Notes under the pieces: model-generated
Seen by the model: only the letters and a program-made list of their open reading frames with translations
Database searches by the model: none
What the model was told of the DNA's origin: nothing
Position numbers and translations under genes: made by a program
Shown here: positions 12,231-42,594 of the stretch, piece by piece
How positions within the stretch are numbered: position 1 is the stretch's first letter
Layout: each line of letters opens with the position of its first letter
Origin: Akkermansia muciniphila
Lineage (GTDB): Bacteria; Verrucomicrobiota; Verrucomicrobiia; Limisphaerales; SIAT01
NCBI GenBank assembly: GCA_945900775.1
Contig: CAMDJP010000008.1
Span: 5,296 to 69,295 of the forward strand
Reading direction: 5' to 3'
Length of the DNA stretch: 64,000 nt

Positions 12231-12261
12231 AGGCTAGCGGGGATGGTTAGTTTCGACGGCA

Positions 12262-18085: not shown

Positions 18086-19057
18086 ATGGATTCTAAAACC
18101 GCTCCAGCCTCCGCCACTTCCGGCTCTTCGCGGACCGTTGTGGACCCGTCTAACCCACGGTCCAAGGCCCAGTACCTCGATCCGGCGATTCTCAGCCGCA
18201 TCGGTTCGCTCGAAGTGGTGGCTCGACAGGTGGTCGAGGGTTTTCGCATCGGCCATCACAAGAGCCCGGCGCGCGGTGTGAGCAGTGAATTCAACGCCTA
18301 TCGCCAGTACACGCAGGGCGACGAAACGCGCCACATTGACTGGAAGGCTTACGCGCGCTCCGACCGCTATTACGTAAAGCTCTTCGACGCGGAGACGAAC
18401 TTCGTCTGCAACTCCCTTATCGATGCCAGCAAGTCGATGACTTACTCGTCCGGGAAAATCTCGAAGATCGAGTATGCCAAGTATCTGGCTGCCAGCCTGT
18501 CGTATCTGGTGGTGGATCAGGGCGACTCCGCCGGGATGGCGATCTTCGACGGCAAGCTGCAGAAATACATCGAGCCGAAGGGCAGCAAGCGGGTGCTGCA
18601 GGACATGTCGAACGAGTTGGAGAAGGTCGTGCCGCAACCGCGCACGAACGTGGGAGCGATCCTCCACGACTTCGCCCACCGCATGAAGCGGCGCGGATTC
18701 GTGATGATCTTCTCGGACCTGTTCGACAACACCGACGAATTCATCGCCGGCCTCAACCATCTTCGCTTCGGCGGGCACAACGTGGTGCTTTTCCACATCC
18801 TCGATCCCTACGAGATCGAGTTCCCGCTCGCCGGCATGTGGAAATTCCTCGGACTTGAGGGTGAGGGCGAGGTCATCACCCAGCCGTCCCGCGTCCGCGC
18901 CAACTACCTCAAGGAACTCGAAGAGTTCGTCGGCAAAATCCGCAAGGCCTGCGGCAAGGCGCAGGTGGATTACGTGCTGGTCAACACGGCTCAGCCCGTC
19001 GAGCAGACCATCTCCAGCTATCTCCTCCAGCGCACCGCGCTGGCGAACGCCCGCTGA
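18086..19057 (+). CDS. DUF58 protein (vWA-like MoxR partner)
   Basis: 323 aa. The DUF58 signature reads EFNAYRQYTQGDETRHIDWKAYARSDRYYVKLF, followed by a vWA-like LIDASKSMTY. This is the position and size typical for the gene following moxR. Confidence 0.9.
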   Translation: MDSKTAPASATSGSSRTVVDPSNPRSKAQYLDPAILSRIGSLEVVARQVVEGFRIGHHKSPARGVSSEFNAYRQYTQGDETRHIDWKAYARSDRYYVKLFDAETNFVCNSLIDASKSMTYSSGKISKIEYAKYLAASLSYLVVDQGDSAGMAIFDGKLQKYIEPKGSKRVLQDMSNELEKVVPQPRTNVGAILHDFAHRMKRRGFVMIFSDLFDNTDEFIAGLNHLRFGGHNVVLFHILDPYEIEFPLAGMWKFLGLEGEGEVITQPSRVRANYLKELEEFVGKIRKACGKAQVDYVLVNTAQPVEQTISSYLLQRTALANAR

Positions 19058-25538: not shown

Positions 25539-27191
25539 ATGGACGCAAACCAACAAATCTCCATCGAGAGCAAGCTCCAATGGGCTTGGCGCCAGGAGCG
25601 CCGCTTCATCAACATCCGCGGCGCGTTCCGCGTTTTGATTTGGCTCATCGGCCTGCTCGCGATCAGCTTCATCATTGATTGGGGTCTCTTCGTCAAAGCC
25701 GGCCTGCGCGCCAATTTGGGCATCGTGCTGCTCGTCGTCAACGGTGGCATTATTGCTTGGGCCGTTTGGTACGAGTGGCGGCGCCACCTCAAGCCTTTTG
25801 ACGCCGTCGACGTTTCGTTGGCGGTCGAGAGACGTCACAGTGGTCTTAACTCCCTCTTCGTTTCCTATGCGCAGTTGGATCCGTCCAAGGCGGATAAGAC
25901 CACGGTCTCCACGGAATTAATCGGGGCGATGCGCGATGAGGCCGTCGTGCAAGCGCGTTCGCTCGACTTTCGCGAGATCGTGGATTTCGGCCAGATCAAG
26001 AAGCTCATCCTCGTCGGCGCGGGCGTGTTTCTCCTGTTCTCCGCCCTCTCCTTCATCTGGAGTGATCACGTCGGCGTCTTTTTCAAGCGTCTGGCCGGTT
26101 CCGATGTCCGCTACCCGACGCAGACGCAGCTCAAGAGCGTTTCAGGCGACCTGACCGTGCGCGTCGGTGACATCGCCATCATTAAAGCCGAGGCCGGCGG
26201 TGCCCTGCCACCGGAAGGGCGCCTTTTCACACGGCCAGTCGGCAGCAAAGTTTCCTGGAAAGAACTACCGATGAAGTCGGACGAAGACCCGGCGAGCTTC
26301 TCGCGCGAGGTGAAGGGCCTGGTCGGCAATCTCAACTATTATGTGCGCGTCGGGGATGACTGCAGCGAGGAATTTGTCATTCGTGTCATCACCGCCCCGC
26401 AGATCGTGGCCACCAAGGTCACCATCGAATACCCCGGCTACATGAACAAGCCCGCCAACGCCAGCGACCAGCTCAACCTCGAAGTCCCGGAGGGGGCCAA
26501 AGTGCGCTGGAACCTGACCTGCAATCCGGCGGTGAAACGCTGCGAGGTCACCATCGGTGAGCGCACTTTCGACGCCAAACTTGACGCGAGCGGAACCAAG
26601 CTCGAATTCGAACACACCGCTAAGGAAGGCTTCAAATACACCTTCCGCTGGACCGAGCGGGAAAAGGAATTCAATTATGACGATGTGCAATATGCAGTCC
26701 GAGTCGTTCCGGACGGAATTCCGGAAGTGGAACTTCTCCGCCCCACCGCCAACGGGCTCGCCACCGTGAACAAGACCCTCAAGATCACCGCCCGTGCCAG
26801 TGACGACCACGGCCTCGCCAAGGCCTGGCTGCTCTACTCCATCAATGCGGGCAGGGAAGAACGCGTCGAGATTAAGGACTTCCAAGGTGCGCCCGGCCAG
26901 GAGTTCACTCACGATTGGAAGCTGAACAAAGCTATTCCCGAGCTGAAATCCCCGGCCCAGATTGCCATCGCGATCGAAGTCGCCGACCTTCATCCGGACA
27001 GCGCCACTCGCAAGCGCCGCTCCTCGACGCGAGTCCTGACTATTGTCGAACCCGAGGCCTATCTGGAGTGGTACCGCGCGGAACTGGCGGCCCAGGCCGA
27101 GGAGTTGAAACGCTCGCGCGACTCTGAAATAGCCTCCTCCACGCAGGTCAAAGCAATCAAAAACCAGGAAACCGACCCTAAACAAAAGTGA
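25539..27191 (+). CDS. Two-TM membrane protein, beta-rich periplasmic region (tentatively the N-terminal half of a DUF4175-like architecture)
   Basis: 550 aa with hydrophobic helices at VLIWLIGLLAISFIIDWGLF and LGIVLLVVNGGIIAWAVWY. The rest is beta-rich. The stop overlaps the next start (GTGA). The family assignment is from memory only. Confidence 0.65.
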   Translation: MDANQQISIESKLQWAWRQERRFINIRGAFRVLIWLIGLLAISFIIDWGLFVKAGLRANLGIVLLVVNGGIIAWAVWYEWRRHLKPFDAVDVSLAVERRHSGLNSLFVSYAQLDPSKADKTTVSTELIGAMRDEAVVQARSLDFREIVDFGQIKKLILVGAGVFLLFSALSFIWSDHVGVFFKRLAGSDVRYPTQTQLKSVSGDLTVRVGDIAIIKAEAGGALPPEGRLFTRPVGSKVSWKELPMKSDEDPASFSREVKGLVGNLNYYVRVGDDCSEEFVIRVITAPQIVATKVTIEYPGYMNKPANASDQLNLEVPEGAKVRWNLTCNPAVKRCEVTIGERTFDAKLDASGTKLEFEHTAKEGFKYTFRWTEREKEFNYDDVQYAVRVVPDGIPEVELLRPTANGLATVNKTLKITARASDDHGLAKAWLLYSINAGREERVEIKDFQGAPGQEFTHDWKLNKAIPELKSPAQIAIAIEVADLHPDSATRKRRSSTRVLTIVEPEAYLEWYRAELAAQAEELKRSRDSEIASSTQVKAIKNQETDPKQK

Positions 27192-28918
27192 GAACCTCTA
27201 TGAGACATTTCAATAGCCATGTCCGGTTCCTAATTATGGCGCTGGCCATGTCCGTCTTGCTGGTCGAGACGGTCCGTGCTCAGAAGGAAGCCGCGCCCGC
27301 TGCACCTGTCGCCGTTGCACCTGCTGAGGTCAAAGGCGTGGACGACATCCTGCTCACCGGCGAACGCCTGTTCAATGAAGAGCGACGCCAAATGGATGTC
27401 TCGCGCCGACTGACGGGCGTCTATCGCCGTTTCGCCTTGCTGCTGGACGATCTGCAATCCAACGAACTCAGCGAAGAAGGCGGAGCCGTGACGCTCGTCA
27501 AGACCGCGAAAGGCGTTGAAACCCTGCGCACCGGACGGTTGCCCGTGGCCACCGACCATTTGCGCAAGGCGCGCGGCGACCTCGGAAAAGCCCTGCCGCA
27601 CGTTGATGGCGCCGACAAGGAAATCGTGGCCATCGTCGCGGACCTCAACAAGATCATCGAGGGAGCCAACTCCATTCTGGCCGACGACCGCCTGCTCAAG
27701 GAAATCCGCGAGATCATCAAGACCGAGGAATTCCTGCGCCGCCAGACGGCCGAGTGGGGCAAAAAACTCATCCTGAAACCCGAAGCCGGCACCCTCGACC
27801 AGGGCCGAGTTTCGCGCGCCCAGCAAGGCGTCATTGAGCGTTACGTCCAGTTTTTCGAGATGCTGACCACGGCGCGCAAGCAGGCGGTTGATCAGGAACT
27901 GGGCGCCCGTTTGGGCAAGACCGAGCAGGTTCTGGTCGAAGGTAAGCCGGACGCCAGACTGGCCGCGGCCATTGACCAAGTCACTCAGAACAAGGCGATT
28001 GGTGCGGTGGGTGCGCAGGATCAAGCCCTCGTCATCCTGCGGAAAGCGGAGAAAATTCTCTCGGAAGAAGTCACGTCCGACCTCGTGAGCGAACTGGCCC
28101 GCATCTTGGCCGCCGAAAAGGATCTCTACCAGGACACCAAGCAGGCGGAGCCTGCGGTGTTTCAGACCGAGAAATCGCAATTCGAAGCGCGCCAGATCGG
28201 GGTCGGCACGATGCTCGAAAACGCCATCAAGAATTTCGTCCCCAGCCTGGCCGAAAAGCTATTCCCACCCGCCACGCCGCCGGCAACTCCCACTCCGCTG
28301 ACGACTTTCACGGTGCAGCCCGTTTCCACCGAACTCGCCACATCGCTCACCGACGCGACCAAAGCCGTGGCTGTCGCTGTCACCGAATTGAATGCCGGCA
28401 AACATGCTCCGGCAGTGGCTGCGGAACTTGCCGTCATCACAGCCCTCGAAAAAGCCCTCGCCCTAGCGAAAGTGGAACTTGGAACCGAAGTGCCCCCCGT
28501 CGAGATTGGTGAAATCACCCTGGCGAATGCTGGCGAAGGTGCTGGCGAAGGTGCTGGCGAAGGTGCTGGCGAAGGTACAGGCGAAGGTACAGGCGAAGGT
28601 ACAGGCGAAGGACAAGGACAGGGACAAGGACAGGGACAAGGACAAGGACAAGGACAGGGACAAGGCAAAGGGAAAGGCGCAGCCAGAGGCAAGGGAATCC
28701 CGCCCAAGTTCGCGGGCGACCCGCCGGATCTCGCAGAAAGTTACGCCGATGGGAAAACGGAAATTGACGGACGAGGCGGGGATGTGAATCGCAAAGGTCA
28801 CATGCTCGACTCGCTCTCGCGCCGCAATCGTTCGGCGGCCATCCAAAACTACATCCAGCAACTGCCTCCCGAATTCCGGCAACAAGTCGCTGAATACTTC
28901 GAAACACTCGCCGAATGA
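27188..28918 (+). CDS. Secreted alpha-helical protein with G/E/Q low-complexity tract (tentatively the C-terminal half of a DUF4175-like architecture)
   Basis: 576 aa from the GTG at 27188 (alternative ATG at 27200). Signal-like FLIMALAMSVLLVETVRAQ. Long helical regions are followed by the tract GEGAGEGAGEGAGEGTGEGTGEGTGEGQGQGQGQGQGQGQGQGKGKG. The C-terminus reads ...YIQQLPPEFRQQVAEYFETLAE. Confidence 0.65.
   Translation: MRTSMRHFNSHVRFLIMALAMSVLLVETVRAQKEAAPAAPVAVAPAEVKGVDDILLTGERLFNEERRQMDVSRRLTGVYRRFALLLDDLQSNELSEEGGAVTLVKTAKGVETLRTGRLPVATDHLRKARGDLGKALPHVDGADKEIVAIVADLNKIIEGANSILADDRLLKEIREIIKTEEFLRRQTAEWGKKLILKPEAGTLDQGRVSRAQQGVIERYVQFFEMLTTARKQAVDQELGARLGKTEQVLVEGKPDARLAAAIDQVTQNKAIGAVGAQDQALVILRKAEKILSEEVTSDLVSELARILAAEKDLYQDTKQAEPAVFQTEKSQFEARQIGVGTMLENAIKNFVPSLAEKLFPPATPPATPTPLTTFTVQPVSTELATSLTDATKAVAVAVTELNAGKHAPAVAAELAVITALEKALALAKVELGTEVPPVEIGEITLANAGEGAGEGAGEGAGEGTGEGTGEGTGEGQGQGQGQGQGQGQGQGQGKGKGAARGKGIPPKFAGDPPDLAESYADGKTEIDGRGGDVNRKGHMLDSLSRRNRSAAIQNYIQQLPPEFRQQVAEYFETLAE
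28522..28676. repeat. In-frame tandem repeats (12-bp and 6-bp units) inside the 27188-28918 CDS
   Basis: GGCGAAGGTGCT about 3-4 times, GGCGAAGGTACA 3 times, then about ten GGACAA/GGACAG hexamers. These encode the GEGA/GEGT/GQ repeats. Confidence 0.9.
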
Positions 28919-29973
28919 AACAGTATCCACTCACCAAAATCCTCGTCGCAATCTTGGCGGCTGTGGTTTTCATCGCCGCCCCCGTCCAGTCGGTCCGGGC
29001 GCAGAGCCAAGAAGCCGGCGAGCAAATCGTGGGCGTGGCGCGCCTAACCCCGGAAGTCCGTGCCGCGATTACCAAGGGCTTGGATTATCTCGCCAAGGAG
29101 GGTGTGCAGAAAGCCGATGGGAGCTGGGGCAGTGGACAGAATGACGTGGCGGAGACGTCGCTCGGTCTCATGGCTTTTATGCTGAAAGGCTATGTTCCGG
29201 GCCGCGGTGGTCGTTACGGCGTAGTCATGGAAAACGCCGTCACCTATCTCATCAACAAAGGCAAGAGCCAGCGGGGATTCTTGGGGACTCCCAATAATCA
29301 CGCCGGCATGTATGAGCACGGTTTGGCTGTCCTTGCCCTGTCCGAAGCGTGGGGCCAAAGTAAGAATCCGGCCGTGGGTGTCGCCCTGCGCGCCGGCGTG
29401 GACATCATTCTCCGAGCCCAAAGCACCCTCGGTGGCTGGCGCTACTCGCCCGAGCCGTCGGACGCGGATCTTTCGATGACTGTCATGCAATTGGTGGCGC
29501 TCAATTCCGCACATGAGTCCGGTATCCAAGTTCCTACCGCCACCATTGAAAAGGCGGTCAAATACGTGATCTCCTGCCAGGAAGAGGGCAGTGGTGGGTT
29601 CCGCTATATGCCAGGGAGCGGCGAGGTTGGTTTCGCGCGCACCGCCGCCGGGGTGATGTCCCTCATTATGACGGGTCAACGCAACCACAAGTCTACCCAG
29701 CGCGGACTGGCTTTCCTGAAAGCCTACCCGAACAAGAAGTTTGAGAAAGGCTACCCTCGATTCCACTACGCTCACTACTATGCCATTCAGGCGATTTATC
29801 AGTCGGGCGAAACGGACTTTCAAAATTGGTATCCTAAAATCGCCACCACCGTTGTCTCCATGCAAGAGCAGGACGGGAGCTGGAGTGGGGAAGGCGGCAA
29901 AGCCTATGCCACAGGGGCCTCAATCCTCATTATCGGCGTGCCCTACCGCTTCCTGCCTATCTACCAGCGTTAG
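28915..29973 (+). CDS. Secreted prenyltransferase/squalene-cyclase-repeat (alpha/alpha-toroid) protein
   Basis: 352 aa with signal peptide ILVAILAAVVFIAAPVQSVRAQ. Terpenoid-cyclase-type repeats recur: DGSWGSG, LGGWRYSP, SGGFRYMP, DGSWSGEGG. It is too short for a true squalene-hopene cyclase and has no DxDD motif. The ATGA overlaps the upstream stop. Confidence 0.8.
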   Translation: MKQYPLTKILVAILAAVVFIAAPVQSVRAQSQEAGEQIVGVARLTPEVRAAITKGLDYLAKEGVQKADGSWGSGQNDVAETSLGLMAFMLKGYVPGRGGRYGVVMENAVTYLINKGKSQRGFLGTPNNHAGMYEHGLAVLALSEAWGQSKNPAVGVALRAGVDIILRAQSTLGGWRYSPEPSDADLSMTVMQLVALNSAHESGIQVPTATIEKAVKYVISCQEEGSGGFRYMPGSGEVGFARTAAGVMSLIMTGQRNHKSTQRGLAFLKAYPNKKFEKGYPRFHYAHYYAIQAIYQSGETDFQNWYPKIATTVVSMQEQDGSWSGEGGKAYATGASILIIGVPYRFLPIYQR

Positions 29974-30099
29974 CGTTGCGCGCCAGGCGATTGCCTGTAG
30001 CACCGAATACGTACTAATGACCATCCCATTTACCATTCGATGTCTGTCAAAGCGCAAGTCCTAGCCAGCGGATCATTTCTGTTGCGGCACAATTTCCTG

Positions 30100-32037
30100 A
30101 TGTTTCCTCGGCTCAAGCTGTTTCTGCTCGCCGCCTTGCTGGCTGGCTGCACCCTTTCCTCCGCTGCATCTGCGCCTGCTCCCCTAGGAACCGGGCGCAT
30201 GCTCCAGCAACTCGAATCCGACGATTGGATTCTTCAGGCCGAGGCCCTGCATTACTTTGCGAAATACCGCGTCATGGACGGTGCCCGCGCCACCCGCGCC
30301 CTGCTGGCCAATGAAAAGGCCAGCCCGTGGATCCGCGGACGCGCCCTCGTGACCTTGTCCGCGCTCGAAAACAAAGTGGTCCCCGCCGAGTTCCAAAAAT
30401 GGATGGAGCACGCCCGGCCAGAACTCCGGGCCGCCGCCGCCGAAGTGCTGGAAGTCGGGGGCGGCGACCAGGCCGCCGCATGGCTACAAACTCTCCTCAA
30501 GGACAAGGACGACAGCGTTCGTTATCAGGCTGCCGCGGCGCTCGCCCGGCGCTCGAAGGAAGCCGCCTGGGCGATGGTGGATTCGCTCACCGCCGAGGGG
30601 ACTACCGGTCCGGCCCGCCTCGCCGCCCGCACGCTTGCGTGGACCGGCACCGATGCGGCCCTCCAGCGCCTCGGCGCACTCATGGCCAAGCCCGATCAGC
30701 TTTCGAAATGCCTCCAGGGCATTCGCGACATTCCATCCTCCAAACTCGTCCCACTCATTCTCACGGCCTCCACTCGCCTCCCGGAGGGTGAGGAGCGGTT
30801 ACACGGCCTGATTCTGACCGACCTCCAGAATCGCGACAAAAAAGATCTGGTCACCGGGCTGGGCAAATTCATCGAGGCGGGCGGCGACCAGAACATTCGC
30901 ACGGCGGCGCGGATCATCACTCTGCTCGTGCCGGCACCCGAATTGGGCGTGCTGCTGCGCACCGCCCTCACGAAGGCCACGGACACCAGAACCATCGAGG
31001 CGGGAATGATCGCCCTCGGAATTCCCGCCATCGAGCCGGTGCGGCACGTCGAGTATTTCACCCAGCAACTCGGGCACGCCGATCCGGCCATCCGCGCACT
31101 GGCCATCCGCTGCCTCGCGCACTGCGAGGGCTTGAATCTTTTCGAAATCCTCAAGCCCAAGATGGCCGATGAGAATGTCCCGGTGGTCAGTGCGGCGCTG
31201 GGCGCCCTTTTGCGCAGCCCGCCGGCGAACGCTCCCCGCGGGACGCTCGTCACCTACCTCAAGGCACCGCTCAGCAGCACTGACAACACCGTCCGCACCC
31301 TCGCGAACGACGTGCTCGCCCATGCTGGGAGTTCCGAGGACTACAAGCCGGCCCTGGCCACTCTCGCCAGCCTGCTCCGCGGAAGAGACGATGATCTACG
31401 CGCCTCCGCTGCCAAGGCCTTGGGACAACTGGCCCCGTCCGGGGAGATCGGGGACCTGGTCTCGATGCAGGGCTACCTGCCCAAATGGACAATCATTGGC
31501 ACCTTCCTCAACGACGATAAGAACAGCGGATTTAAAGAGGTTTTTCCGCCGGAAAAGGCCATTGATTTCGACGCAAAATATCAATCCAAGTTCGTGTGGG
31601 CTGGCGTGCAGGGCGGAGTGGAGGGAAGCGACAGCAAGCCTATCGAGCGGGAGATTGCGTGGTCTAAAGTGAACGTGGATCAGGCCGATGGCCGCCTGCT
31701 CATGGCCGCGAATCTTCCTCCGCCCGGCTCGCTGTCCATCGGCTATGCGGTCTCCGATGTGACCGTGGACAAGGCGCGCGAGGTCATGCTCACCATCGAT
31801 GGCGACGACGGTTTCCGGGTCTGGGTCAACGGCGCGGTGATCGGCGAACAAATGGCCGTGCCCGATCCCAAGACCCGGCGCACCGTAGCCACCATGCCCG
31901 GCGTGAAGGTGCAGCTCAAGCAGGGCTCCAACCGTTTCTTCGTCAAATCCTCCAACATCACCGGCCCATGGTGGGTGCGCATCCGGGTCGCGGATGCCGA
32001 AGGGAACCCCGTGGATTTTCGCGCCCCCAAGCCATGA
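30100..32037 (+). CDS. HEAT-repeat lipoprotein with C-terminal jelly-roll (galactose-binding-like) domain
   Basis: The ATG at 30100 gives MFPRLKLFLLAALLAGC with lipobox LAGC (the track start at 30040 is less likely). Multiple HEAT-like repeats are present (...RGRALVTLSAL..., ...VRYQAAAALARR..., ...PAIRALAIRCLAH...). The C-terminal segment reads WTIIGTF...DDGFRVWVNGAVIGE...GSNRFFVKSSN...WWVRIRV. Confidence 0.75.
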   Translation: MFPRLKLFLLAALLAGCTLSSAASAPAPLGTGRMLQQLESDDWILQAEALHYFAKYRVMDGARATRALLANEKASPWIRGRALVTLSALENKVVPAEFQKWMEHARPELRAAAAEVLEVGGGDQAAAWLQTLLKDKDDSVRYQAAAALARRSKEAAWAMVDSLTAEGTTGPARLAARTLAWTGTDAALQRLGALMAKPDQLSKCLQGIRDIPSSKLVPLILTASTRLPEGEERLHGLILTDLQNRDKKDLVTGLGKFIEAGGDQNIRTAARIITLLVPAPELGVLLRTALTKATDTRTIEAGMIALGIPAIEPVRHVEYFTQQLGHADPAIRALAIRCLAHCEGLNLFEILKPKMADENVPVVSAALGALLRSPPANAPRGTLVTYLKAPLSSTDNTVRTLANDVLAHAGSSEDYKPALATLASLLRGRDDDLRASAAKALGQLAPSGEIGDLVSMQGYLPKWTIIGTFLNDDKNSGFKEVFPPEKAIDFDAKYQSKFVWAGVQGGVEGSDSKPIEREIAWSKVNVDQADGRLLMAANLPPPGSLSIGYAVSDVTVDKAREVMLTIDGDDGFRVWVNGAVIGEQMAVPDPKTRRTVATMPGVKVQLKQGSNRFFVKSSNITGPWWVRIRVADAEGNPVDFRAPKP

Positions 32038-35000
32038 GCGCGCGGGGTCATCTACTCGTTCTCCTCTCGGTTTTGTCAGGGACGCTCGCCGCCCTGGCGG
32101 AGCCGCCCCCCAAGGACCCGCGGTGGGAGCAGGCGCAGAAGGCTTACAACGAAGGTTTCTCCGACGAAGGGCACCGGCTTCTCAAAGCCCTCATCGCCGA
32201 CCACCCCGGCGATGTCGATCTGGCCGCGGCCTGCTACGAGAAGATTTTTGACCAGGAATATCGGATCCTCCCAAAACATGTGCCGATCAAAACTCAGGGC
32301 CAGCCCATGCACAGTCACTGGCATGCCACCGCCCACTACACGGGGGTCAACTCCAATATGCAGATTCCGCCCGCTGTGGAACGCATCCTGGCGCTCGAGC
32401 GGCTCGGCGCGCTTTCAGCCCATACGGCTTTCCTCCGCACGGTCGGCGGCGCCTGCCTCGAGGGCGGCCTCAACCGGCGCGCCTATCTGGAACTGGGCCA
32501 GATGCTCACCCGCCTGAGAAGCGAAAACCCTCGCGACCCATTCTGGCTGATAATGGAAGCGCACGCGCTCAGCATCATGATGCGCCCCGAAGCCGGGAAG
32601 CTCCTCAATGAACTCCGGAAGCGTATCGATCTCGATCATACCGACGATGGCCTTCGCAGCGACTGGATGGTGGCCGACGCTCTTCTCTCACACGGCATGG
32701 CACAACCCGTCATGGCAAAGCCTGCCGTGCCGGAGGGAAGTCCGCTCCCTGCGCTGGCGCCTGTCAATCCCGACGATCCGGAGGATCCCTGGCGCAAGGT
32801 GTTGGATCGCTCCCCGAAAGATATTCCCGGCGAGGTGGACCGACTCATCGCGCTCGCCACGGCTTCCCGGGATTTATTGATGTGGGTGAATACGGATGGC
32901 GGCGGACTGCTTCCCACCCGCGCGCTTGATCTCCACCTGCTCAGCAAACCCTCCGCCGAACTCGAAGCGCTGCGCAAGCTGCAGGAAACACTCGTTTCCC
33001 CCGAAGCGCAGGCCGCCGCCCGCACCGAGGCGGACATCCTCAAATTGACCCGCCGCTACCCCTGGGCGCGCTCCGGTCAGGTGCTCCTGCTGAAAATCGC
33101 CAACGAGGCCCTCTGGAACGCGCGCTTCGAGTCTGCATGGCGCAGCTTTCACGAAGTGCTCCTCCACACCTCCGACCCCGCGCTCCGCGAAGCCGCGCAA
33201 GTCGGCACCTGGACCGCCCAAGGCCTTTCCGGCGGAGCGGCGGAAGTGCTCGCGCAACCCACCGCCTTTGAGCCCGCCAAGACCTACCCGTGGATGGGAC
33301 GCCCGACCAAGGGTTCGGAAATTCGCGCCGCCCTGCAGGCCATGGTCCCGCCCGTGCCGACGGTCGTCGCTCCCGCGCTCAAGGATGTCCGCCCGCATGT
33401 CGTGCATCTCCCGCCGGTGTCTCCGTGGGTGATCAACGCCCACGCTGAGGGGGGCTATTCCATCGATCTCCAGGTGGCCGGCAAGACACTGCTCGCCACC
33501 GGGCGCAACCTCATCGCCGCCTACGATGCCGCCAAGCCCGGCACCCCGCTCTGGACTCACGCGCAGCAGTTCCCCAGTGAGAAGAATAATCGCTCACCTT
33601 TCCCCGGCTATTACCGCGGTCTCATCAAGGACGGGGCCATGATTACCCGCTTGGGCCAGCACGAGCTGCCGAACGGTCTGGCCGCTTTCAGCCTCGCCAC
33701 CGGCGATCCATTGTGGACGTCGCTCAATGCCGTCGCGAACGGCTTCAGCGGGGAATATCTCAACCATGCCCACCCCATCCCGCTCGGCGATCCGGTCCAG
33801 GCCGACGGCAGACTGTTTTACCTGCAAACGACCGTAACCAGCGGACGGGCTGACGGTCGCCCCGTGTTCAGCCTCGTCTGCTTCGACCCCGCTACCGCAC
33901 AGCCCAGTTGGGCGACCCCGATCATCGACTCCAAAGTGGACGTGGGGAACCTCCAGCACAACTCCTCATTCACCTACGGCAACGCCGTCACCGTCCATCG
34001 TGGCGCGGTTTACAGTTGCTCAAACGTCGGGCACATCGCCCGATCCGACGTGCGCGACGGTCGCGTCGAATGGGCTCACAAGTATGCATACCGCGGCGGC
34101 GACAATGGTGGGCGTGTCGGCAGCAGCCCCGTCATCGCCGGCAGTAATGTCATCTTCCTGCCCCGCAACGCGGAACGCCTCATCGCCCTCGACCAGCGCA
34201 CCGGCGCTCTCGCATGGGAAAATGTCATGTTTCGCGCCTTCGAAGTGCTCGGCCTCTGGCAGGACACCCTCGTCGTGCGCGGGCCCAACCATCTCGCGGG
34301 GCTCGATGTCGCCACCGGGAACGCCCGCTGGCATCGGAGCCTGACCCAGCGCGCCTTCAACCGCGGCCAGCTCATCGCCGATTCCGTTTACCTCGGGCAG
34401 CCCGACGCCCTGCAGCGGCTCGACGCCCGCACCGGCGAGCTGATCGAAAGCCGGCCCTGGGCGCTCCAGCCCGAGCGCGCCCTCAGTTTTACCATCTCCG
34501 GCCAGGACCTCTACATCGCCACGGACCAGCCCCGCGAAGACCCCCGCCAAAAAGTGGGCCAGCCTCCCGGCCCGGAAGTGGCCTCGTCCGCGCAACCGCT
34601 CAAGCTGCCCCTCAAGCGTGCCTGGTCGCTCATGCGCCCGGGTGCCTCCCTCCTGCTCCCGCCCGCCGGAGTCAACCCCGGCACGGCCGTTCTCCTTGGC
34701 GACGGCATGATCGAGTGCCTCGAAGTCAACGAACGTGGTGGCACCCGCTGGCGTCGCTTCCTTGATCTCAAGACCAACCAGCTCCTCGTCCGCTTCATTG
34801 GCAAGAACGGAGAGATACTCATGCTCATGGAACAGGGCGAGTCCCCTGACAATCCCCCGCGTGCCCTCGGCATCGACACCAAGACCGGCGCGACCCTCTG
34901 GCAGACGACCGTCCCTCCCTGGCGCGACCCACCACCCTCCTTTTGTGGCACCGTGATGATCTTCGCCAGCCACGCCCACCACTTGGGCGGCGGGGCAATG

Positions 35001-35807
35001 GCCATCGACCTCACCACGGGAAAACAACTTTGGCGGCGCTACCTTCGCAGCTCCTCCCCTCCGGTAGCCAAAGGGGACGAATCTCGTTTGCTGCTTCTCG
35101 GCAACCTTTGGACGCCGAAACCCTCCCGTGTGACCCTCAACGCGCAGACCGGCCAGACCATCGCGGATTCCCCGGAAAAATCCGCATTACTACCCATGCT
35201 TTTCACCGTCCACGGCAACAGGGCCCCCGGCGTTTATCTCCTCCCTCCGGTGGGAGACCCAACGGTCTTCCAGCCACAGGCCGTCATTGCGGACCATGTC
35301 GGCGGGACTGGCGCTCCCTACTACCTCATCCGGCCCCGCGACGGCACTGACAAGACCCCCGAGGGCGTCTATCGCGCCGACGACCCATCCTACTTCTACA
35401 GAATCCCGAGCGCTGACGTCCTGTTCGATGGCGACTACGCCATCACCATGCAGGGCAAACTCGCGGTCACCGACCTCAAAGCCAAACGCCTCTTGCCGCT
35501 CCCTGCGACGGACGAAAAGGCGGCCATCAACCAACCGGGACTTCTCTGCCGCATCGGCCCCGATCGTTTGCTCAAAATCATCGGCAGAGGCGACGGGAAG
35601 AATCTCGTCTTCACCATTGATCTCCCGGGCGGGACAGTGACCGAGGGGGTCCTCGAAAATCCCGGTCAGGTCGAGGCATTCGCCAATGCGCACTACTTCA
35701 ACCCCGACGCCAACCCCCATCATGTCCGGCCGTTTCTTCCGACTTTCGACCGCGTTTTCCTGACCTACGACAACACCACCGTCACCGCCTGGGTCGCGGC
35801 TCCCTAG
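32034..35807 (+). CDS. Exported 1257-aa helical-solenoid + PQQ-like beta-propeller protein (paralog 1)
   Basis: The ATG at 32034 overlaps the HEAT gene stop (ATGA) and gives the signal-like MSARGHLLVLLSVLSGTLAALA. About 450 aa of helical/TPR-like sequence is followed by repeated BamB/PQQ-like blades (e.g. LIALDQRTGALAWEN, LAGLDVATGNARWHRSL, LQRLDARTGELIESRPW). A conserved C-terminal domain ends ...TAWVAAP. Confidence 0.8.
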   Translation: MSARGHLLVLLSVLSGTLAALAEPPPKDPRWEQAQKAYNEGFSDEGHRLLKALIADHPGDVDLAAACYEKIFDQEYRILPKHVPIKTQGQPMHSHWHATAHYTGVNSNMQIPPAVERILALERLGALSAHTAFLRTVGGACLEGGLNRRAYLELGQMLTRLRSENPRDPFWLIMEAHALSIMMRPEAGKLLNELRKRIDLDHTDDGLRSDWMVADALLSHGMAQPVMAKPAVPEGSPLPALAPVNPDDPEDPWRKVLDRSPKDIPGEVDRLIALATASRDLLMWVNTDGGGLLPTRALDLHLLSKPSAELEALRKLQETLVSPEAQAAARTEADILKLTRRYPWARSGQVLLLKIANEALWNARFESAWRSFHEVLLHTSDPALREAAQVGTWTAQGLSGGAAEVLAQPTAFEPAKTYPWMGRPTKGSEIRAALQAMVPPVPTVVAPALKDVRPHVVHLPPVSPWVINAHAEGGYSIDLQVAGKTLLATGRNLIAAYDAAKPGTPLWTHAQQFPSEKNNRSPFPGYYRGLIKDGAMITRLGQHELPNGLAAFSLATGDPLWTSLNAVANGFSGEYLNHAHPIPLGDPVQADGRLFYLQTTVTSGRADGRPVFSLVCFDPATAQPSWATPIIDSKVDVGNLQHNSSFTYGNAVTVHRGAVYSCSNVGHIARSDVRDGRVEWAHKYAYRGGDNGGRVGSSPVIAGSNVIFLPRNAERLIALDQRTGALAWENVMFRAFEVLGLWQDTLVVRGPNHLAGLDVATGNARWHRSLTQRAFNRGQLIADSVYLGQPDALQRLDARTGELIESRPWALQPERALSFTISGQDLYIATDQPREDPRQKVGQPPGPEVASSAQPLKLPLKRAWSLMRPGASLLLPPAGVNPGTAVLLGDGMIECLEVNERGGTRWRRFLDLKTNQLLVRFIGKNGEILMLMEQGESPDNPPRALGIDTKTGATLWQTTVPPWRDPPPSFCGTVMIFASHAHHLGGGAMAIDLTTGKQLWRRYLRSSSPPVAKGDESRLLLLGNLWTPKPSRVTLNAQTGQTIADSPEKSALLPMLFTVHGNRAPGVYLLPPVGDPTVFQPQAVIADHVGGTGAPYYLIRPRDGTDKTPEGVYRADDPSYFYRIPSADVLFDGDYAITMQGKLAVTDLKAKRLLPLPATDEKAAINQPGLLCRIGPDRLLKIIGRGDGKNLVFTIDLPGGTVTEGVLENPGQVEAFANAHYFNPDANPHHVRPFLPTFDRVFLTYDNTTVTAWVAAP

Positions 35808-35811
35808 CAGC

Positions 35812-38800
35812 ATGAAACGTCCGATCCTGATTCTCACCGCCCTTTTCCTCGGAGCGCTCGTTGCGTCTGCGGCCCCGCCCGCCGACGACCCCCGCTGGGC
35901 AGCCGCGCTCGAGGCTTACGCGAAGGGCCAGCGTGAAGTGGGGCACCGTCTCCTCTCCGCCCTTGCCGCGCAGCATCCCGGCGATCTCGACCTGGCCGCG
36001 GCGTGCTACGAGAAAATTCTCAAGAACGTAAATCTCCCCTCCCCGAAAGCTCCAACGACCACCGACAACCCCTGGATTACCTTCGCCACGGAACGCCTGC
36101 TCGCCCTCGAACGCCTCGGCGCCCACTCTGCGAACACAGATCTCATCCGTTCCGCCGCCTCCGTCGAGAGTCGGCTCGCTGTCGCCAGGAGTCGTTTCCT
36201 TGATGCGTTCGAGACAATCTCCCGGCTGCGCGCCGAAAATGACCATGACCTTTTCTGGCGCATGACGGAGGTCATCATCCTCCGCAGTATGGGGCTGCCC
36301 GAAGCCGACGCACTAATCGCCGAACTCAAGCAGGACTACGATCCCGACCATTCCGACCCCGACAAGCGCGCCCAGTGGGAATGGATCGCCGCGGAAATCA
36401 CCACGCCTCACAGTCCTCCACTAGTCGCCCGTCCGGCGTGGACTCGGCAGCTCGTGCGCCTGCCCGTCGCCAAACCTGCTCCTCCCGAAGGCAGTCCGAT
36501 CAGCCTGCTTTCACCCGACGATCCTGATGACCGCTGGCGCGTCGTCACCGATCCCTCTCCAAGAGGAGGTGCCGGCGCCGTGGATCGCTTCCTCGGCTAC
36601 ACCTACGCCCTCGCCGAGGGCGTGCCGTGGCGTGCCGGTCCCGGTTTGCTCGATTCCAACCGGGCGCTCAACCTGCACCTGCTCAGCAAACCTGCCGCCG
36701 AACTCGAAGCCCTGCGCCAAGAGCAGGAAGCGCAATTCGTCCGTGAAGCACAGACCGCAGCCCGCACCGAGACGGGCGTCCTAAAAGTAACCCGGCGCTA
36801 CCCGTGGTCGCGATCGGCCCAGACGCTCCTGCTGAAGTTCGCCAGCGAGGCACTCTGGGACGGCCGCTTCGAATCCGCCTGGCGCAGCTTTCACGATGTG
36901 CTCCTCTACGCCTCTGATCCCGCGCTCCGCGAGGCCGCCCAGATCGGCATTTGGACTGCCCGCGCCCTCTCCGGCGGAGCGGCGGAAGTGCTCGCGCAAC
37001 CCGCCGCCTTCGAGCCCGGCAAGACCTACCCGTGGATGGGGCGGCCGACCAAAGGCGCAGAAATTCGCGCCGCGCTCCAGGCCACACTTCGGTCCGTGCC
37101 GCCGGTCGCAGCGCCGTCGCTCAGCGCTGTTCGCCCGCATGTCCTGAACCTTCCGCCGGTGGCTCCGTGGCCGTCGGGTGAGTCTTCGGCGGGCTTTGGC
37201 GTCGATCTCCAAGTGGCCGGCAACAGAGTCGTGGCCAGCGCGCGCAATGTTATCGCCGCCTACGACGTCGCCAAACCCGGCGCCCCGTTGTGGGTCCATT
37301 TACGGCACCGCGCCGCCGCCAACCCCCAGAACTACTGGTCAGGCTACTACCGCTGCCTCATCGAGGACGGCACGCTTTTCTCACGCTGGAGCGTGACCGA
37401 ACTGCCCAGCGGTCTGGCCGCCTTTGATCTCGCCAGCGGCGATCCGCTTTGGACTGCTCTAAGTGAAAACCCGTGGAACGATCGTCGCGGAGTGCAGACT
37501 CCGGGTTCCAACGCTCGAAAAAGGCAGCCGCTGCGTTTCTCGGTGCCCATGGGCGACCCGGTTCGAGCGGATGGCCTTCTCTTTTACCTGCAATGGGATT
37601 CCGCGCATGATCTCCACGCCAAACAAGGCACACACCTGAACCTCGTTTGTTTCGACCCGGGCACCGGTCAACCTCGCTGGACGACCTCGCTCACCGATCA
37701 CCGATTTGCGGGAGATTTCCGCGGGCCCACCACCGCCATCTACGGCAACTCCGTCACGGTCCATCGCGGAGCGGTTTACAGTTGCAACAACTCCGGCCAG
37801 ATCTTCCGCTCCGACGTGCGTGACGGCCGCATCGAATGGGCCCATAACTATCGCCGCCACCCCACGAGCGCGGAGTTTCTCGGCAGCGCCCCCATCGTCG
37901 CCGGCAGCAGTGTCATCTTTCTGCCCCGCGATTCGGGAGTCGCCGTCGCGCTTGATCAGCGCACCGGCTTTCTCGTCTGGGAAAATCCCTTGATCCGCGG
38001 CGCCGAGGCCCTCGGCATTTGGCAGAACACCCTCGTGGTACGCGGTGTCGCCATTCTCGCTGGGCTTGATCTCGCGACGGGCAAGACTCGCTGGTCCCGG
38101 AATCTGACGGGGCGCACCCTCGACCGCTCCCAGCTCATCGCGGACTCCATCTACCTCGGCGGAGGCGATGCCCTCGTGCGGTTCGACGCCCGCACCGGCG
38201 AACTGCTCGAAAGCCGCCCTTGGGCGCTCCAATCGGAACGGGCCCTCACTTTCACTTTCTCCGGTCAGGATCTTTACATCGTAACGGACCGGCCCGCCGA
38301 CGACCCTCGCCAAAAAGTGGGCCAGCCCCTCGGACCAGAACTGGCCTCGGCTGCAGCCCCGCTCAAGCTGCCCATGCAGCGTGCGTGGTCGCTCTCGCGT
38401 CCCGACGCCACTTTCGCGCTGCCGCCCGCGGGCGTCAGCGCTGGCAGCGCCTACGTCTTCAGCGACGGTCTCATCGAGTGCCTCGATGTGAACCAGCGCG
38501 GCACCATCCGCTGGCGCCGCTTCCTCAATCTCACCAGCCCCACTTTGTTCTTCGCCGGCGACACGCTCATCCTGCGCGAAAGAGAAGTCCAACATCTCCC
38601 GTCCGCCCGCGTGCTCGCCCTCGATTCCAAGACCGGAGTGACGCTCTGGGAAGCGCCCGTGCCCATCAACCACCAGCACGCTTTCCACTTCGGCAGCCGC
38701 ATACTTTTCCACGACGGACGCGAAAAATTCGTCGCCCTCGACCTCGCCAGCGGTCAGCGGGCCTGGCAAACCACGCTGGTCACGGCGAATACCCAGAATC

Positions 38801-40038
38801 CGCACTGGGACGGCACGCGCCTGCATCTTTTCCGCGCTCCCGCCACGGGCAATCTCGAGCACTTTACCCTCGACCCTGCCACGGGCGACACGGTCGCGCA
38901 TCGAGAGGTTGACGCGAAGCCGCCAGGTGAACCTGCCACAGCCATTCGCCAGCTTGAAGACGGCACCTACGAAATCCGTTTCGCACCCACCTCGGCCCGG
39001 CATTTTCGCGTGACCACGCTCTCCAGCTCCGGCGGTGTGGGTGACTATGCTTCTGCTGCGGAGTTTTATCTGCTCGGCCCAGATGGTCAGCGCCTGCCGC
39101 GCGACCGGTGGATCGCGACCGGCGATCACGAACCCAACGCCGGCAACAGAGCGCAGCCCCGAAATGCTATTGATGGAAATCCGAATTCATGGTGGCACTC
39201 CCAGTGGATGAGTGGCCAGACGCCGCACCCGCACTACTTCATCATCGACCTCGGCGTCGCCCAGACCATTAGCGGTTTTCAATACCTGCCGGCGAAGATT
39301 ATCAACAACAACGGGCTGATCGCCGATTACGAACTCCACGTGAGCCAGAACAACAAGGCATGGGGCGCGCCGGTATCGAAGGGATGTTTTTCCGAGAACG
39401 TCAGGGTCAGGACTTCCGAGATTGCGACTTCCGTCCCCGCCTTCTTCGAGGTGCGCCGCCAGTTGCGAGGGGGACTCCAGTCCATCTATCGCTACGACCT
39501 CGCGGGCAAGGGCAGCCTCGTGAACGAAATCGGCAGCATCCTGCGCGTAGCCGAGCCTTACAGTCTCATTGGCGGCCGCCAAAAAATCGACAGCCCGGAT
39601 ATGCTGACCTTCCGTCGCGCCGACGACCCTTCCTACGTTTTCCCGTTCCCGCTCCCGAACGACCGGGTAGGCCACCTCCAATTCGACGGCGACTACGCCA
39701 TTACCCAGCAGGGCAAACTCGAAATCATCGACTTGAAATCGAAACGCCAACTGCCACTCCCCACCGACGAAAAAGCGCTCATCCACCAGGCGGGATTCCT
39801 TTGTCGCATCGGCCCCGATCGTTTACTCAAAATCGTCAACCGCGACGGGAAGCATTTCGCCGTCACCATCGACCTCAAGAGCGGGACAGTCACCGAGGGC
39901 ATTCTCGAGAATCAGGGCGAGCCAATCACCATGAGCCGCTTTCTCCAGCCCGGCGGCAAATCCCGCTATCTCACCTTCGACCGCACCTTCCTCTCCTACG
40001 ACAACACCACGCTCACCGCTTGGGTCACCGCGCCATAG
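35812..40038 (+). CDS. Exported 1408-aa helical-solenoid + PQQ-like beta-propeller protein with inserted F5/8 type C (discoidin) domain (paralog 2)
   Basis: Signal-like MKRPILILTALFLGALVASAA. It is collinear with paralog 1, with long stretches of high amino-acid identity. The extra segment ...YEIRFAPTSARHFRVTTLSS...AIDGNPNSWWHSQW...PHYFIIDLGVAQTISGFQYLP...IADYELHVSQNNKAWG is a discoidin-type domain. The protein ends ...TAWVTAP. Confidence 0.85.
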   Translation: MKRPILILTALFLGALVASAAPPADDPRWAAALEAYAKGQREVGHRLLSALAAQHPGDLDLAAACYEKILKNVNLPSPKAPTTTDNPWITFATERLLALERLGAHSANTDLIRSAASVESRLAVARSRFLDAFETISRLRAENDHDLFWRMTEVIILRSMGLPEADALIAELKQDYDPDHSDPDKRAQWEWIAAEITTPHSPPLVARPAWTRQLVRLPVAKPAPPEGSPISLLSPDDPDDRWRVVTDPSPRGGAGAVDRFLGYTYALAEGVPWRAGPGLLDSNRALNLHLLSKPAAELEALRQEQEAQFVREAQTAARTETGVLKVTRRYPWSRSAQTLLLKFASEALWDGRFESAWRSFHDVLLYASDPALREAAQIGIWTARALSGGAAEVLAQPAAFEPGKTYPWMGRPTKGAEIRAALQATLRSVPPVAAPSLSAVRPHVLNLPPVAPWPSGESSAGFGVDLQVAGNRVVASARNVIAAYDVAKPGAPLWVHLRHRAAANPQNYWSGYYRCLIEDGTLFSRWSVTELPSGLAAFDLASGDPLWTALSENPWNDRRGVQTPGSNARKRQPLRFSVPMGDPVRADGLLFYLQWDSAHDLHAKQGTHLNLVCFDPGTGQPRWTTSLTDHRFAGDFRGPTTAIYGNSVTVHRGAVYSCNNSGQIFRSDVRDGRIEWAHNYRRHPTSAEFLGSAPIVAGSSVIFLPRDSGVAVALDQRTGFLVWENPLIRGAEALGIWQNTLVVRGVAILAGLDLATGKTRWSRNLTGRTLDRSQLIADSIYLGGGDALVRFDARTGELLESRPWALQSERALTFTFSGQDLYIVTDRPADDPRQKVGQPLGPELASAAAPLKLPMQRAWSLSRPDATFALPPAGVSAGSAYVFSDGLIECLDVNQRGTIRWRRFLNLTSPTLFFAGDTLILREREVQHLPSARVLALDSKTGVTLWEAPVPINHQHAFHFGSRILFHDGREKFVALDLASGQRAWQTTLVTANTQNPHWDGTRLHLFRAPATGNLEHFTLDPATGDTVAHREVDAKPPGEPATAIRQLEDGTYEIRFAPTSARHFRVTTLSSSGGVGDYASAAEFYLLGPDGQRLPRDRWIATGDHEPNAGNRAQPRNAIDGNPNSWWHSQWMSGQTPHPHYFIIDLGVAQTISGFQYLPAKIINNNGLIADYELHVSQNNKAWGAPVSKGCFSENVRVRTSEIATSVPAFFEVRRQLRGGLQSIYRYDLAGKGSLVNEIGSILRVAEPYSLIGGRQKIDSPDMLTFRRADDPSYVFPFPLPNDRVGHLQFDGDYAITQQGKLEIIDLKSKRQLPLPTDEKALIHQAGFLCRIGPDRLLKIVNRDGKHFAVTIDLKSGTVTEGILENQGEPITMSRFLQPGGKSRYLTFDRTFLSYDNTTLTAWVTAP

Positions 40039-40647: not shown

Positions 40648-40877
40648 GAATACAGCTGTCGAGATTTGAGCCGACGACCGACGGTTTACAAACCAATCGC
40701 GCTGCATTTTTTATAAGACCCACCTGCGAAGTGTGAGCTCGTTCCTTGCAGTCAACCCAGGCCCATTTTCGATGTCCTCAAAACGTCCATTTCTAGCTCT
40801 GGCGAAGACCTTTCCCCTTGCATCAGGGCGTCATCCCGCTTGACCGCCTCGCGCTGGATTGCGAAGGTTTAAGGATC

Positions 40878-42137: not shown

Positions 42138-42249
42138 GCCTTGCGGTGGGCGTTCTTGGCTCAGCGCAGTTGAGCTTGCTGTGCAGTCGCTGTGGAAGTG
42201 GGGCACGTCTGTGATTCACCACTTGACCCCGTAACGGTGAACCCGCCAA

Positions 42250-42594
42250 ATGCTGCGGATGTCGGTGTTGCACGTATTCAGATTTGTCGGGTTGCTTTTG
42301 GTGTCCCTAACGACTCTAGCGGTTACGGCTGCCGAGGCATCTAAGGAGTTTCTGCCCGTTGGTCCGGCTCTATCTCGCCAGTACCTGACTGCGGCCGAGC
42401 GCACGCCCATCGTGAAAGCGCTTCTTGCACACGCCGAGGACGCCGCCGACCACAACTTGCGGCTGATGTATTGGTTCGCTGCTGAACCCATCGTTGCCGC
42501 TGCGCCGGCCAAAGTTCCGTTGCTGTTGGCCAAAACGAAAATCCCACTCCTGCGCGAATACATCACCCGCGGCATGACCGCCGGCATGAAATGA
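42250..42594 (+). CDS. Small secreted protein resembling the segment that precedes the HEAT region in PVC-type heme-binding proteins
   Basis: 114 aa with signal-like VFRFVGLLLVSLTTLAVTAAEA. The motif DHNLRLMYWFAAEPIV...KIPLLREYITRG recalls the xNLPLMxWYxxEP segment of that family (from memory). The stop overlaps the next ATG (ATGA, 42591-42594). Confidence 0.5.
   Translation: MLRMSVLHVFRFVGLLLVSLTTLAVTAAEASKEFLPVGPALSRQYLTAAERTPIVKALLAHAEDAADHNLRLMYWFAAEPIVAAAPAKVPLLLAKTKIPLLREYITRGMTAGMK

Follow-up and report, generated by a model that had tools for sequence, protein, structure and literature searches.

Introduction

Operons that encode a MoxR-type AAA+ ATPase together with a DUF58 protein and BatA-type proteins carrying a von Willebrand factor A (VWA) domain are widespread, and phenotypes in stress tolerance and virulence have been associated with them, but we know of no agreed mechanism or client. 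The Bat operon of Bacteroides additionally includes BatD and the tetratricopeptide repeat (TPR)-type proteins BatC and BatE. Here we analyse a stretch of 64,000 nt from an assembly listed under Akkermansia muciniphila (GCA_945900775.1, contig CAMDJP010000008.1, positions 5,296 to 69,295 of the forward strand; called the window below, to whose own numbering all nucleotide positions refer), in which two adjacent genes for large exported β-propeller proteins, paralogue 1 (par1) and paralogue 2 (par2), close an 11-gene operon containing MoxR, DUF58 and BatA-VWA genes. A first-pass annotation made from the letters alone had described the two as a tandem pair of α-solenoid plus β-propeller proteins that might form a periplasmic scaffold or coat.

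Several described systems resemble parts of this locus. The MoxR-class protein MxaR and the VWA proteins MxaS, MxaC and MxaL are required for the insertion of Ca2+ into MxaF (PMC12276312), and in the MoxR-vWA ternary conflict systems MoxR and vWA are joined by a conserved third component (VMAP, iSTAND or propeller), with effector domains fused to the vWA protein (Kaur et al. 2020, PMC7159879). The membrane-coat (MC) proteins of the Planctomycetes-Verrucomicrobia-Chlamydiae (PVC) group are defined by an N-terminal propeller followed by a C-terminal α-solenoid, "strictly in this particular order" (PMC2799638).

Results and Discussion

All genes between 16859 and 40038 are located on the plus strand, and from the DUF58 gene onward neighbouring genes overlap by up to 4 nt or are separated by up to 66 nt, with a spacing of ≤19 nt in most cases (Table 1). 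Promoter-like sites are present upstream of the MoxR gene, and a scan for an intrinsic terminator after par2 detected none. By predicted location two of the eleven products are cytoplasmic, three are membrane proteins and six are exported. As in Bat/MoxR-VWA operons, MoxR (AAA_3), DUF58 and a BatA-type VWA protein are encoded together; the Walker motifs of MoxR and the metal ion-dependent adhesion site (MIDAS) motifs of DUF58 and BatA-VWA are intact, and the latter protein matches BatA with 47 bits and TIGR02226 with 59 bits, in addition to VWA_2. No Pfam match to BatD or to a TPR family was obtained in the operon proteins scanned. This MoxR/DUF58/BatA-VWA context, which the first-pass annotation had not noted, is the strongest functional clue to the pair. 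The adjoining HEAT lipoprotein had been credited with the same two fold classes as the pair; its HEAT repeats and lipobox are indeed present, but its C-terminal part is without family match and gave nothing in a PDB sequence search.

To place the pair among its relatives we compiled its homologues, which for par1 form 35 clusters at 90% identity. Eight of these are par1-type (72–87% identity to par1, without discoidin domain), 26 are par2-type with discoidin (30–50% identity; from metagenome-assembled genomes (MAGs) of Verrucomicrobiales and Pirellulales), and the last is a truncated 840-aa sequence without a discoidin match. Furthermore, 49 genome loci (numbered with the prefix L) from MAGs of Verrucomicrobiota, Planctomycetota and Kiritimatiellia were compared by tblastn with the operon proteins of the window, and wherever upstream sequence exists in them the gene order is BatA-VWA, GATase1-like, DUF4175, the 576-aa protein g576, toroid, HEAT and propeller. 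In syntenic loci a single par2-type propeller gene is the normal state; the tandem pair is confined to the closest relatives of the window (L003/L007, L004 and L005), with a single copy in other lineages. The gene order is kept in metagenome loci, retrieved via the motif LFRR[YF]PWA, whose propeller protein is 24–29% identical, and in 19 of 22 metagenome loci the HEAT gene lies directly upstream of the propeller gene. The trio of toroid, HEAT and giant PQQ_2 protein was also found in an Opitutae MAG, and it occurs as well within a complete operon running from DUF58 to the propeller gene. As the HEAT–propeller adjacency and the gene order persist down to 24–29% identity across phyla, we regard the propeller protein as functionally coupled to the operon. 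Judged by gene order and similarity, the pair arose by a duplication, specific to this lineage, of the gene that ends an 11-gene operon which extends across Verrucomicrobia, Planctomycetes and relatives, and no description of this extended operon form was found in the searchable literature.

The best-conserved operon member is the toroid protein, with 889 homologues and 52–74% identity in distant loci, where the propeller protein is 24–42% identical. One toroid homologue also matches the complement TED family. The functional core of the trio with HEAT and propeller proteins may lie in the toroid protein. Paralogues of the propeller protein also occur outside the operon in marine Roseibacillus/Akkermansiaceae MAGs (26–34% identity, discoidin-bearing; loci L025, L030, L032, L034–L037, L040 and L042–L049), and in L032 the extra copy lies near genes for a DUF7133-HEAT-cytochrome c protein, a GFO/IDH/MocA oxidoreductase and a GDSL esterase.

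Within the window the start of par1 overlaps the stop of the HEAT gene as ATGA, and 4 nt separate the stop of par1 from the start of par2. Both gene lengths were reproduced where genes had been called independently on other contigs from this population, for par1 on L078 among others. The open reading frames are as first described, and the proposed collinear paralogy is borne out by BLASTP (50% identity over 1075 aa, E = 0; 54% over the last 169 aa, E = 6e-44) as well as by a 40-codon sliding window. Given in par1 residues, the identity in this window is uneven, with 0.72 at aa ~41–80, 0.78–0.85 at aa ~346–425, 0.72–0.80 at aa 773–852 and 0.72–0.79 at aa 1129–1190, and with 0.27–0.42 at aa 121–226 and 0.28–0.43 at aa 913–1043. 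The highest peak corresponds to the ~120-aa block whose strong conservation had been pointed out before, and the match of the N-termini likewise stands overall, except that the motif given as 'A.KAY' reads 'ALEAY' in par2. Both proteins begin with a hydrophobic signal sequence, in agreement with the export proposed for them, and their N-termini (MSARGHLLVLLSVLSGTLAALAEPP in par1 and MKRPILILTALFLGALVASAAPP in par2) contain no cysteine and hence no lipobox of the kind that makes BamB a lipoprotein. By these signals par1 and par2 are predicted to be Sec-exported, non-lipidated periplasmic proteins.

Table 1: Positions of the operon genes, of the domains of the two paralogues and of their longest identical run.
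Feature	Position (nt)	Strand	Remarks
MoxR AAA+ ATPase	16859..17950	+	first operon gene; cytoplasm; AAA_3 202 bits, Walker A/B intact
DUF58 (VWA-like)	18086..19057	+	cytoplasm; 141 bits; MIDAS DASKS
620-aa protein	19057..20919	+	exported; without family match
BatA-VWA protein	20924..23131	+	membrane; BatA N-terminal double transmembrane (TM) segment, VWA (MIDAS DASLS), CARDB, DUF7408
GATase1-like protein	23151..25529	+	membrane; two TM segments, DUF1355-type
DUF4175 protein	25539..27191	+	membrane; multi-pass
g576	27188..28918	+	exported; 576-aa helical protein, GEG/GQ low-complexity tract
α/α-toroid protein	28915..29973	+	exported; prenyltransferase/squalene-cyclase-like (Pfam)
HEAT-repeat lipoprotein	30040..32037	+	exported; lipobox LLAGC, ~190-aa C-terminal domain without family match
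par1	32034..35807	+	1257 aa; arm and two propellers, without discoidin
par1 signal peptide (MSARGHLLVLLSVLSGTLAALA)	32034..32099	+	without lipobox; hydrophobic segment aa 7–25; cleavage site inferred
par1 TPR-like helical-repeat arm (aa 23 to ~440)	32100..33353	+	AlphaFold2 and Foldseek
par1 block domain (aa ~297–467)	32922..33434	+	unnamed; directly before propeller 1
par1 propeller 1 (aa ~478–830)	33465..34523	+	~32 strands, about 8 blades; DSSP on AlphaFold2 model, blade motifs
par1 propeller 2 (aa ~860–1257)	34611..35804	+	~31 strands; AlphaFold2, Foldseek, motifs of alignment A3
par2	35812..40038	+	1408 aa; plan of par1 plus discoidin insertion
par2 block domain (aa ~285–455)	36664..37176	+	BLASTP and sliding-window identity
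par2 discoidin (F5/8 type C), circularly permuted (aa ~1050–1200)	38959..39411	+	inserted in propeller 2
Exact 33-nt run	33228..33260 and 36970..37002	+	contains the 32-mer of the first-pass annotation

The order of the two fold classes, helical first and β second, agrees with the first description. AlphaFold2 modelled par1 aa 23–470 (36-sequence alignment; predicted local distance difference test score (pLDDT) 79.7, predicted template modelling score (pTM) 0.50) with ~21 helices and just two small hairpins, and aa 461–1257 as all-β (pLDDT 73.3, pTM 0.74). Against the PDB, Foldseek returned for the N-terminal arm exclusively TPR superhelices (consensus TPR, OGT, APC/C, NatA), which would fit the proposed α-solenoid, though these matches are weak (template modelling score (TM) 0.23–0.36). 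A Pfam scan of par1 and par2 was without a TPR family match and a PDB sequence search with the N-terminal region found nothing, and from the model this region might be described as a TPR-like helical repeat arm without specific relative.

The β part is divided by a proline-rich linker at par1 aa ~831–859. Foldseek aligned it with tandem double-propeller proteins over 800–1000 columns (E about 1e-14), and for the single propellers BamB was the best match (TMt 0.64–0.68, root-mean-square deviation (rmsd) 6–8 Å), which together with the number of strands in each half fits an 8-bladed BamB fold, the blades being counted from DSSP strands only. The architecture assigned to each protein includes two BamB-like propellers, which are probably 8-bladed. 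As expected from the several BamB-like blades noticed earlier in both proteins, Pfam PQQ_2 (PF13360, gathering threshold 27.6) matches par1 with 81.7 bits (E = 8e-23) and par2 with 112.6 bits (E = 3e-32), and apart from the discoidin of par2 it is the only Pfam match in either. The best matches of the PDB sequence search (E about 0.006) were PQQ-repeat proteins, and the same search with the C-terminal blades (profile A3) found nothing. The shared C-terminal region, previously taken for a domain of its own, is conserved, but it lies inside propeller 2 and represents its last ~3 blades, with blade-like motifs in alignment A3.

The difference in length between par1 and par2 results from the discoidin module, which is present only in par2 (Pfam PF00754, aa 1112–1194, 52.5 bits, E = 7e-14, cut-off 28.2 bits) and which the Pfam scan did not find in par1. 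It is part of a ~200-aa insertion at the site of a low-confidence loop of the par1 model (aa ~1047–1074). In its native order it covers positions 11–90 of the 127 profile positions (59 bits); when the upstream segment (aa ~1051–1092) is moved behind it in silico, the match extends to positions 11–127 (70 bits) and a full-length match to F5_F8_type_C_2 appears as well. As re-ordering restores the full profile match, the domain is circularly permuted. A circularly permuted discoidin was also seen at L032:9842-14068. Comparison of the homologues identifies the discoidin-bearing par2 as the ancestral, widespread form, from which par1 would have arisen by loss of the discoidin.

The conserved ~120-aa patch is, from its alignment with distant homologues, the core of an unnamed ~170-aa domain. 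An exhaustive HMMER search with the N-terminal 448 aa against 1.84 billion representatives gave 130 proteins at E ≤ 1e-3, of which most of the distant ones cover only query residues ~275–445, equal to par1 aa ~297–467. The match is located at about aa 100–500 of proteins of 1000–2460 aa. In the sampled matches a PQQ_2 propeller follows directly, one of them also having a Laminin_G_3 lectin domain, and signal peptides are predicted in most of those sampled. The block precedes a propeller in at least 130 protein clusters. Its consensus (alignment A4) is LFRRYPWA...A.R.F.DVL.H..DP.LR..AQVGLWLA.AQ...PWMG....A..IR.RL...LPP...W, and purifying selection on it throughout the family explains why conservation between the paralogues is highest here.

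From these data we infer that par1 and par2 are best read as subunits of a Bat/MoxR-type envelope complex, in which they would act in the periplasm as scaffold and bind glycans. The periplasmic scaffold of the first-pass annotation remains the most plausible role. Propeller protein, HEAT lipoprotein and α/α-toroid protein would form a periplasmic module that docks on the VWA, GATase1-like and DUF4175 proteins of the inner membrane, and the cytoplasmic MoxR ATPase might assemble or remodel the complex via MIDAS contacts of DUF58 and VWA. Propellers and TPR arm would act as protein–protein scaffolds in a BamB-like role, the discoidin could anchor the complex to a glycan, either extracellular or of the envelope, and glycan binding is also possible for the C-terminal domains of the HEAT lipoprotein and the 620-aa protein. 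After the duplication the block, the blades of propeller 1 and the last blades of propeller 2 would have retained the contacts to partners, and the ligand specificity of the two copies could differ through the arm, which has diverged, through the first half of propeller 2 and through the lectin that one copy has and the other lacks, the two being possibly alternative or co-assembling subunits. Taken as a whole, a tandem-duplicated last gene with TPR-double-propeller architecture in an operon-coupled periplasmic module has in our judgement a slightly better than even chance of being right.

Several points weigh against this reading. Complex formation, localisation and glycan binding are read from domain content and gene order, and the function of Bat/MoxR-VWA operons is itself unsettled in the literature found. 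The best fold match of the arm has E = 2e-3 at the low TM values given above, and the number of blades comes from DSSP strands and not from coordinates. In a Lentisphaerae MAG the trio is present but detached from MoxR/Bat-like genes, and in Roseibacillus MAGs there are one or two further paralogues, divergent in sequence, at sites away from the operon. Because the latter sit outside the operon, the propeller protein can evidently function without adjacent operon genes.

The main rival, for which the analogy in gene content is real, reverses the roles and makes the propeller protein the substrate, which would be loaded with metal or matured by the MoxR/VWA module as in the mxa system and, once mature, might serve as an enzyme or binder that depends on metal. 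A MoxR AAA+ ATPase, a DUF58/VWA protein and a membrane VWA protein indeed share the operon with a periplasmic PQQ-superfamily propeller, the need for MxaR and MxaS/C/L in Ca2+ incorporation into MxaF (PMC12276312) provides the precedent, and propeller 1 contains a strongly conserved polar motif (SDVRDGRxxW, YGNxVTVHRGAVYS). However, the signature of PQQ dehydrogenases is absent (21 and 18 bits, cut-off 480) and none of these enzymes is among the top 50 Foldseek matches of par1 aa 461–1257, the extra structural-looking exported proteins of the operon (HEAT, toroid, coiled-coil) have no counterpart in the mxa cluster, and the out-of-operon paralogues also speak against a client role, which leaves this explanation fairly unlikely. 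A little less probable still is a broader proposal, in which the operon would encode an undescribed trans-envelope, ATP-driven machine of PVC bacteria whose MoxR/DUF58 part metal-loads or switches, via VWA, a complex of HEAT, toroid, double-propeller and lectin parts. This would generalise the logic of MxaRSACKL and methanol dehydrogenase to a propeller without PQQ. If it were true, a single machine would have two ligand specificities by virtue of its duplicated propeller subunits, and a periplasmic client could be named for the Bat/MoxR-VWA operons.

It is also conceivable, and in our view clearly unlikely, that par1 and par2 are free-standing glycan-binding or polysaccharide-utilisation accessories with a role in carbohydrate foraging, whose position in the operon is historical. 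The lectin modules discoidin, which par2 has, and Laminin_G_3, which a distant family member has, would suit such a role, as would the genes for a discoidin sulfatase or for pectate-lyase-like and glycoside hydrolase proteins downstream in some loci and the oxidoreductase and esterase genes near out-of-operon paralogues. Since the neighbours downstream of the propeller gene vary among relatives and the HEAT–propeller adjacency and operon order persist over the distances described above, we prefer the scaffold of a Bat/MoxR-type envelope complex.

The history of the duplication was followed in the window, L004, L005 and L003 plus L007, which contain both copies, and in the close, single-copy relative L006. 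The first-pass annotation had taken patches of identical DNA as a sign of gene conversion and quoted a 32-mer at 33229 and 36970; the 32-mer exists and its first position is right, but the second copy starts at 36971. It is part of an exact 33-nt run, several 17–21-mers are also common to the two genes, and the block identity of 0.81 at the nucleotide level comes near the 0.85–0.86 of orthologues, all of which could mean that ongoing conversion and not selection maintains the conserved patches. Furthermore, L006 has a single gene (L006:9896-14143) that starts with MSARSH like par1, groups with par2 of L005 in every region and contains the discoidin, so that copies can recombine; we take this gene, from its composition, to suggest a secondary deletion which fused the tandem copies by recombination. 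In contrast, the block identity between par1 and par2 within a genome (0.81 in the window, 0.82 in L004, 0.78 in L005) shows no excess over that between genomes (0.78–0.84), and when the codon columns of the block are shuffled, 7% of the trials give an identical run of 33 nt (p = 0.07). The block is equally conserved in distant single-copy homologues, and identical codons at identical residues have a frequency of 0.71 in it, resembling the 0.63–0.71 in other well-aligned regions. As the within-genome identity is no higher than that between genomes and the 33-mer is unsurprising at this local identity, recent conversion is unsupported, and we rejected it on the region-wise matrices of nucleotide and identical-codon identity across the four two-copy genomes and the 33-mer permutation; maintenance of the patches by ongoing conversion appears improbable.

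The duplication itself is ordinary tandem paralogy with domain loss in one copy. The number of synonymous substitutions per site (dS) is 0.80–0.95 between paralogues and 0.24–0.57 between orthologues, and the ratio of nonsynonymous to synonymous rates (dN/dS) is 0.36–0.58 for par1 and 0.26–0.30 for par2 orthologues, from which it follows that both copies are maintained by purifying selection and that par1 is less constrained. Between the window and L004 the nucleotide identity of par1 forms a mosaic, with 98% at aa 25–75, 80% at aa 76–295 and 91% at aa 901–1040, a pattern that would fit homologous recombination among lineages. In five ENA assemblies, contigs belonging to the population of the window (≥99.2% identity; L074 and L079–L082) break at 32157, 32226, 32226 and 32484 and another one begins at 35530, the interior of par1 often failing to assemble. 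These breaks may reflect strain-level presence or absence, or microdiversity.

In the surroundings, the genes that follow par2 after a gap of ~800 nt (40818–43790) encode an exported protein with FG-GAP repeats and a cytochrome c protein. Within g576 the tract (GEGx)n/(GQ)n at ~28550–28690 appears to vary in length between assemblies, as indicated by overlapping BLAST pieces at 28520–28611. A second, unrelated VWA locus lies upstream on the minus strand (8643–14586), where a VIT+VWA gene (12262–14586) adjoins the gene of a 1195-aa protein with a fervidolysin-like prodomain (8643–12230).

Comparison with known systems

With PVC membrane-coat-like proteins such as Gemmata gp4978 the paralogues share the combination of propeller and stacked helical repeat in one large protein. 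The first-pass annotation had built on this likeness for its possible coat. A coat or lattice of the protocoatomer type on membranes would now also be favoured by COPI β', IFT-A and a nuclear-pore ring subunit among the fold matches. These matches are generic tandem-propeller or TPR hits with TM of about 0.2–0.35, however, and the order that defines MC proteins (PMC2799638) is reversed here, with helices at aa 23 to ~440 and two propellers at aa ~478–1257. As, in addition, the propellers are of the BamB/PQQ type and both proteins carry Sec signal peptides, which speak for a periplasmic destination and not for the intracellular membranes or vesicles of MC proteins, the proposed kinship falls and a coat of this type is very improbable.

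Database names for the family are generic or wrong, and JGI lists par1-type proteins as 'outer membrane protein assembly factor BamB'. That they are BamB orthologues or PQQ-dependent dehydrogenases is hardly credible despite this naming, the PQQ_2 match and BamB as top single-propeller fold, since both curated cut-offs are missed by far (TIGR03300 equivalog, 47.7 bits for par1 and 51.1 bits for par2 against 285.2; TIGR03075 alcohol/methanol dehydrogenase, 21.1 and 18.1 bits against 480, a score that would reflect an intact PQQ/metal site), the lipobox is absent, the proteins, which have a second propeller and also a TPR arm, are 3–4 times the size of BamB, and their genes lie outside a BAM context. 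The first-pass annotation had named a match to a characterised family such as the PQQ-dependent dehydrogenases as an outcome that would refute it, and on the latter values and the top 50 folds there is no such match; membership in either family was rejected. What remains in common with BamB (YfgL), the 8-bladed lipoprotein of the β-barrel assembly machinery (BAM), is the propeller fold with PQQ_2, a periplasmic location, which for the paralogues is predicted, and the lack of an enzyme signature, BamB being a protein–protein scaffold; in contrast to BamB, par2 has a discoidin and both paralogues are encoded in a MoxR/VWA operon. Thus, the names 'BamB' and 'membrane-coat-like' are corrected here for a family that comprises 130 protein clusters or more, and the unnamed ~170-aa domain and the circularly permuted discoidin insertion are newly defined.

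The MoxR-vWA conflict systems also combine MoxR with vWA, and the MoxR of the window has a secondary bpMoxR match in Pfam (47 bits). Its match to AAA_3 is far better, however, and the partners are membrane and periplasmic proteins and not cytoplasmic effectors. A Pfam scan of the operon proteins revealed neither VMAP or iSTAND nor any effector domain, and PADLOC gave no match for MoxR, DUF58, BatA-VWA, par1 or par2. With an architecture unlike that described by Kaur et al. (PMC7159879), an anti-phage or conflict system was rejected.

Tandem-propeller scaffolds such as EMC1, Utp21 and other WD proteins of the small-subunit (SSU) processome and IFT-A align with the whole of par1 aa 461–1257 and are likewise non-enzymatic platforms, but they are eukaryotic, with 9–12% identity and TM 0.2–0.35, and no homology is implied. 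Closer in gene content is the mxa cluster (MxaF with MxaR/S/A/C/K/L), in which a periplasmic PQQ-superfamily propeller also occurs together with MoxR, DUF58-type and membrane VWA genes. Apart from the missing dehydrogenase signature it differs in that the paralogues have two propellers, which share a chain with TPR and lectin modules, and no homologues of MxaI, MxaJ or MxaG were recognised among the operon proteins.

The most extensive likeness is that to the Bat/MoxR-DUF58-BatA operons of Bacteroides, Leptospira, Borrelia, Francisella and Riemerella, which have MoxR, DUF58 and BatA-VWA with MIDAS as first genes as well and whose function is poorly understood in all cases. In contrast to these, the operon described here continues with GATase1-like, DUF4175, two unassigned exported proteins, toroid, HEAT and giant propeller genes, a form found here only in MAGs of the PVC group, and its fixed exported partners are concrete candidates for the target of the ATPase/VWA module.

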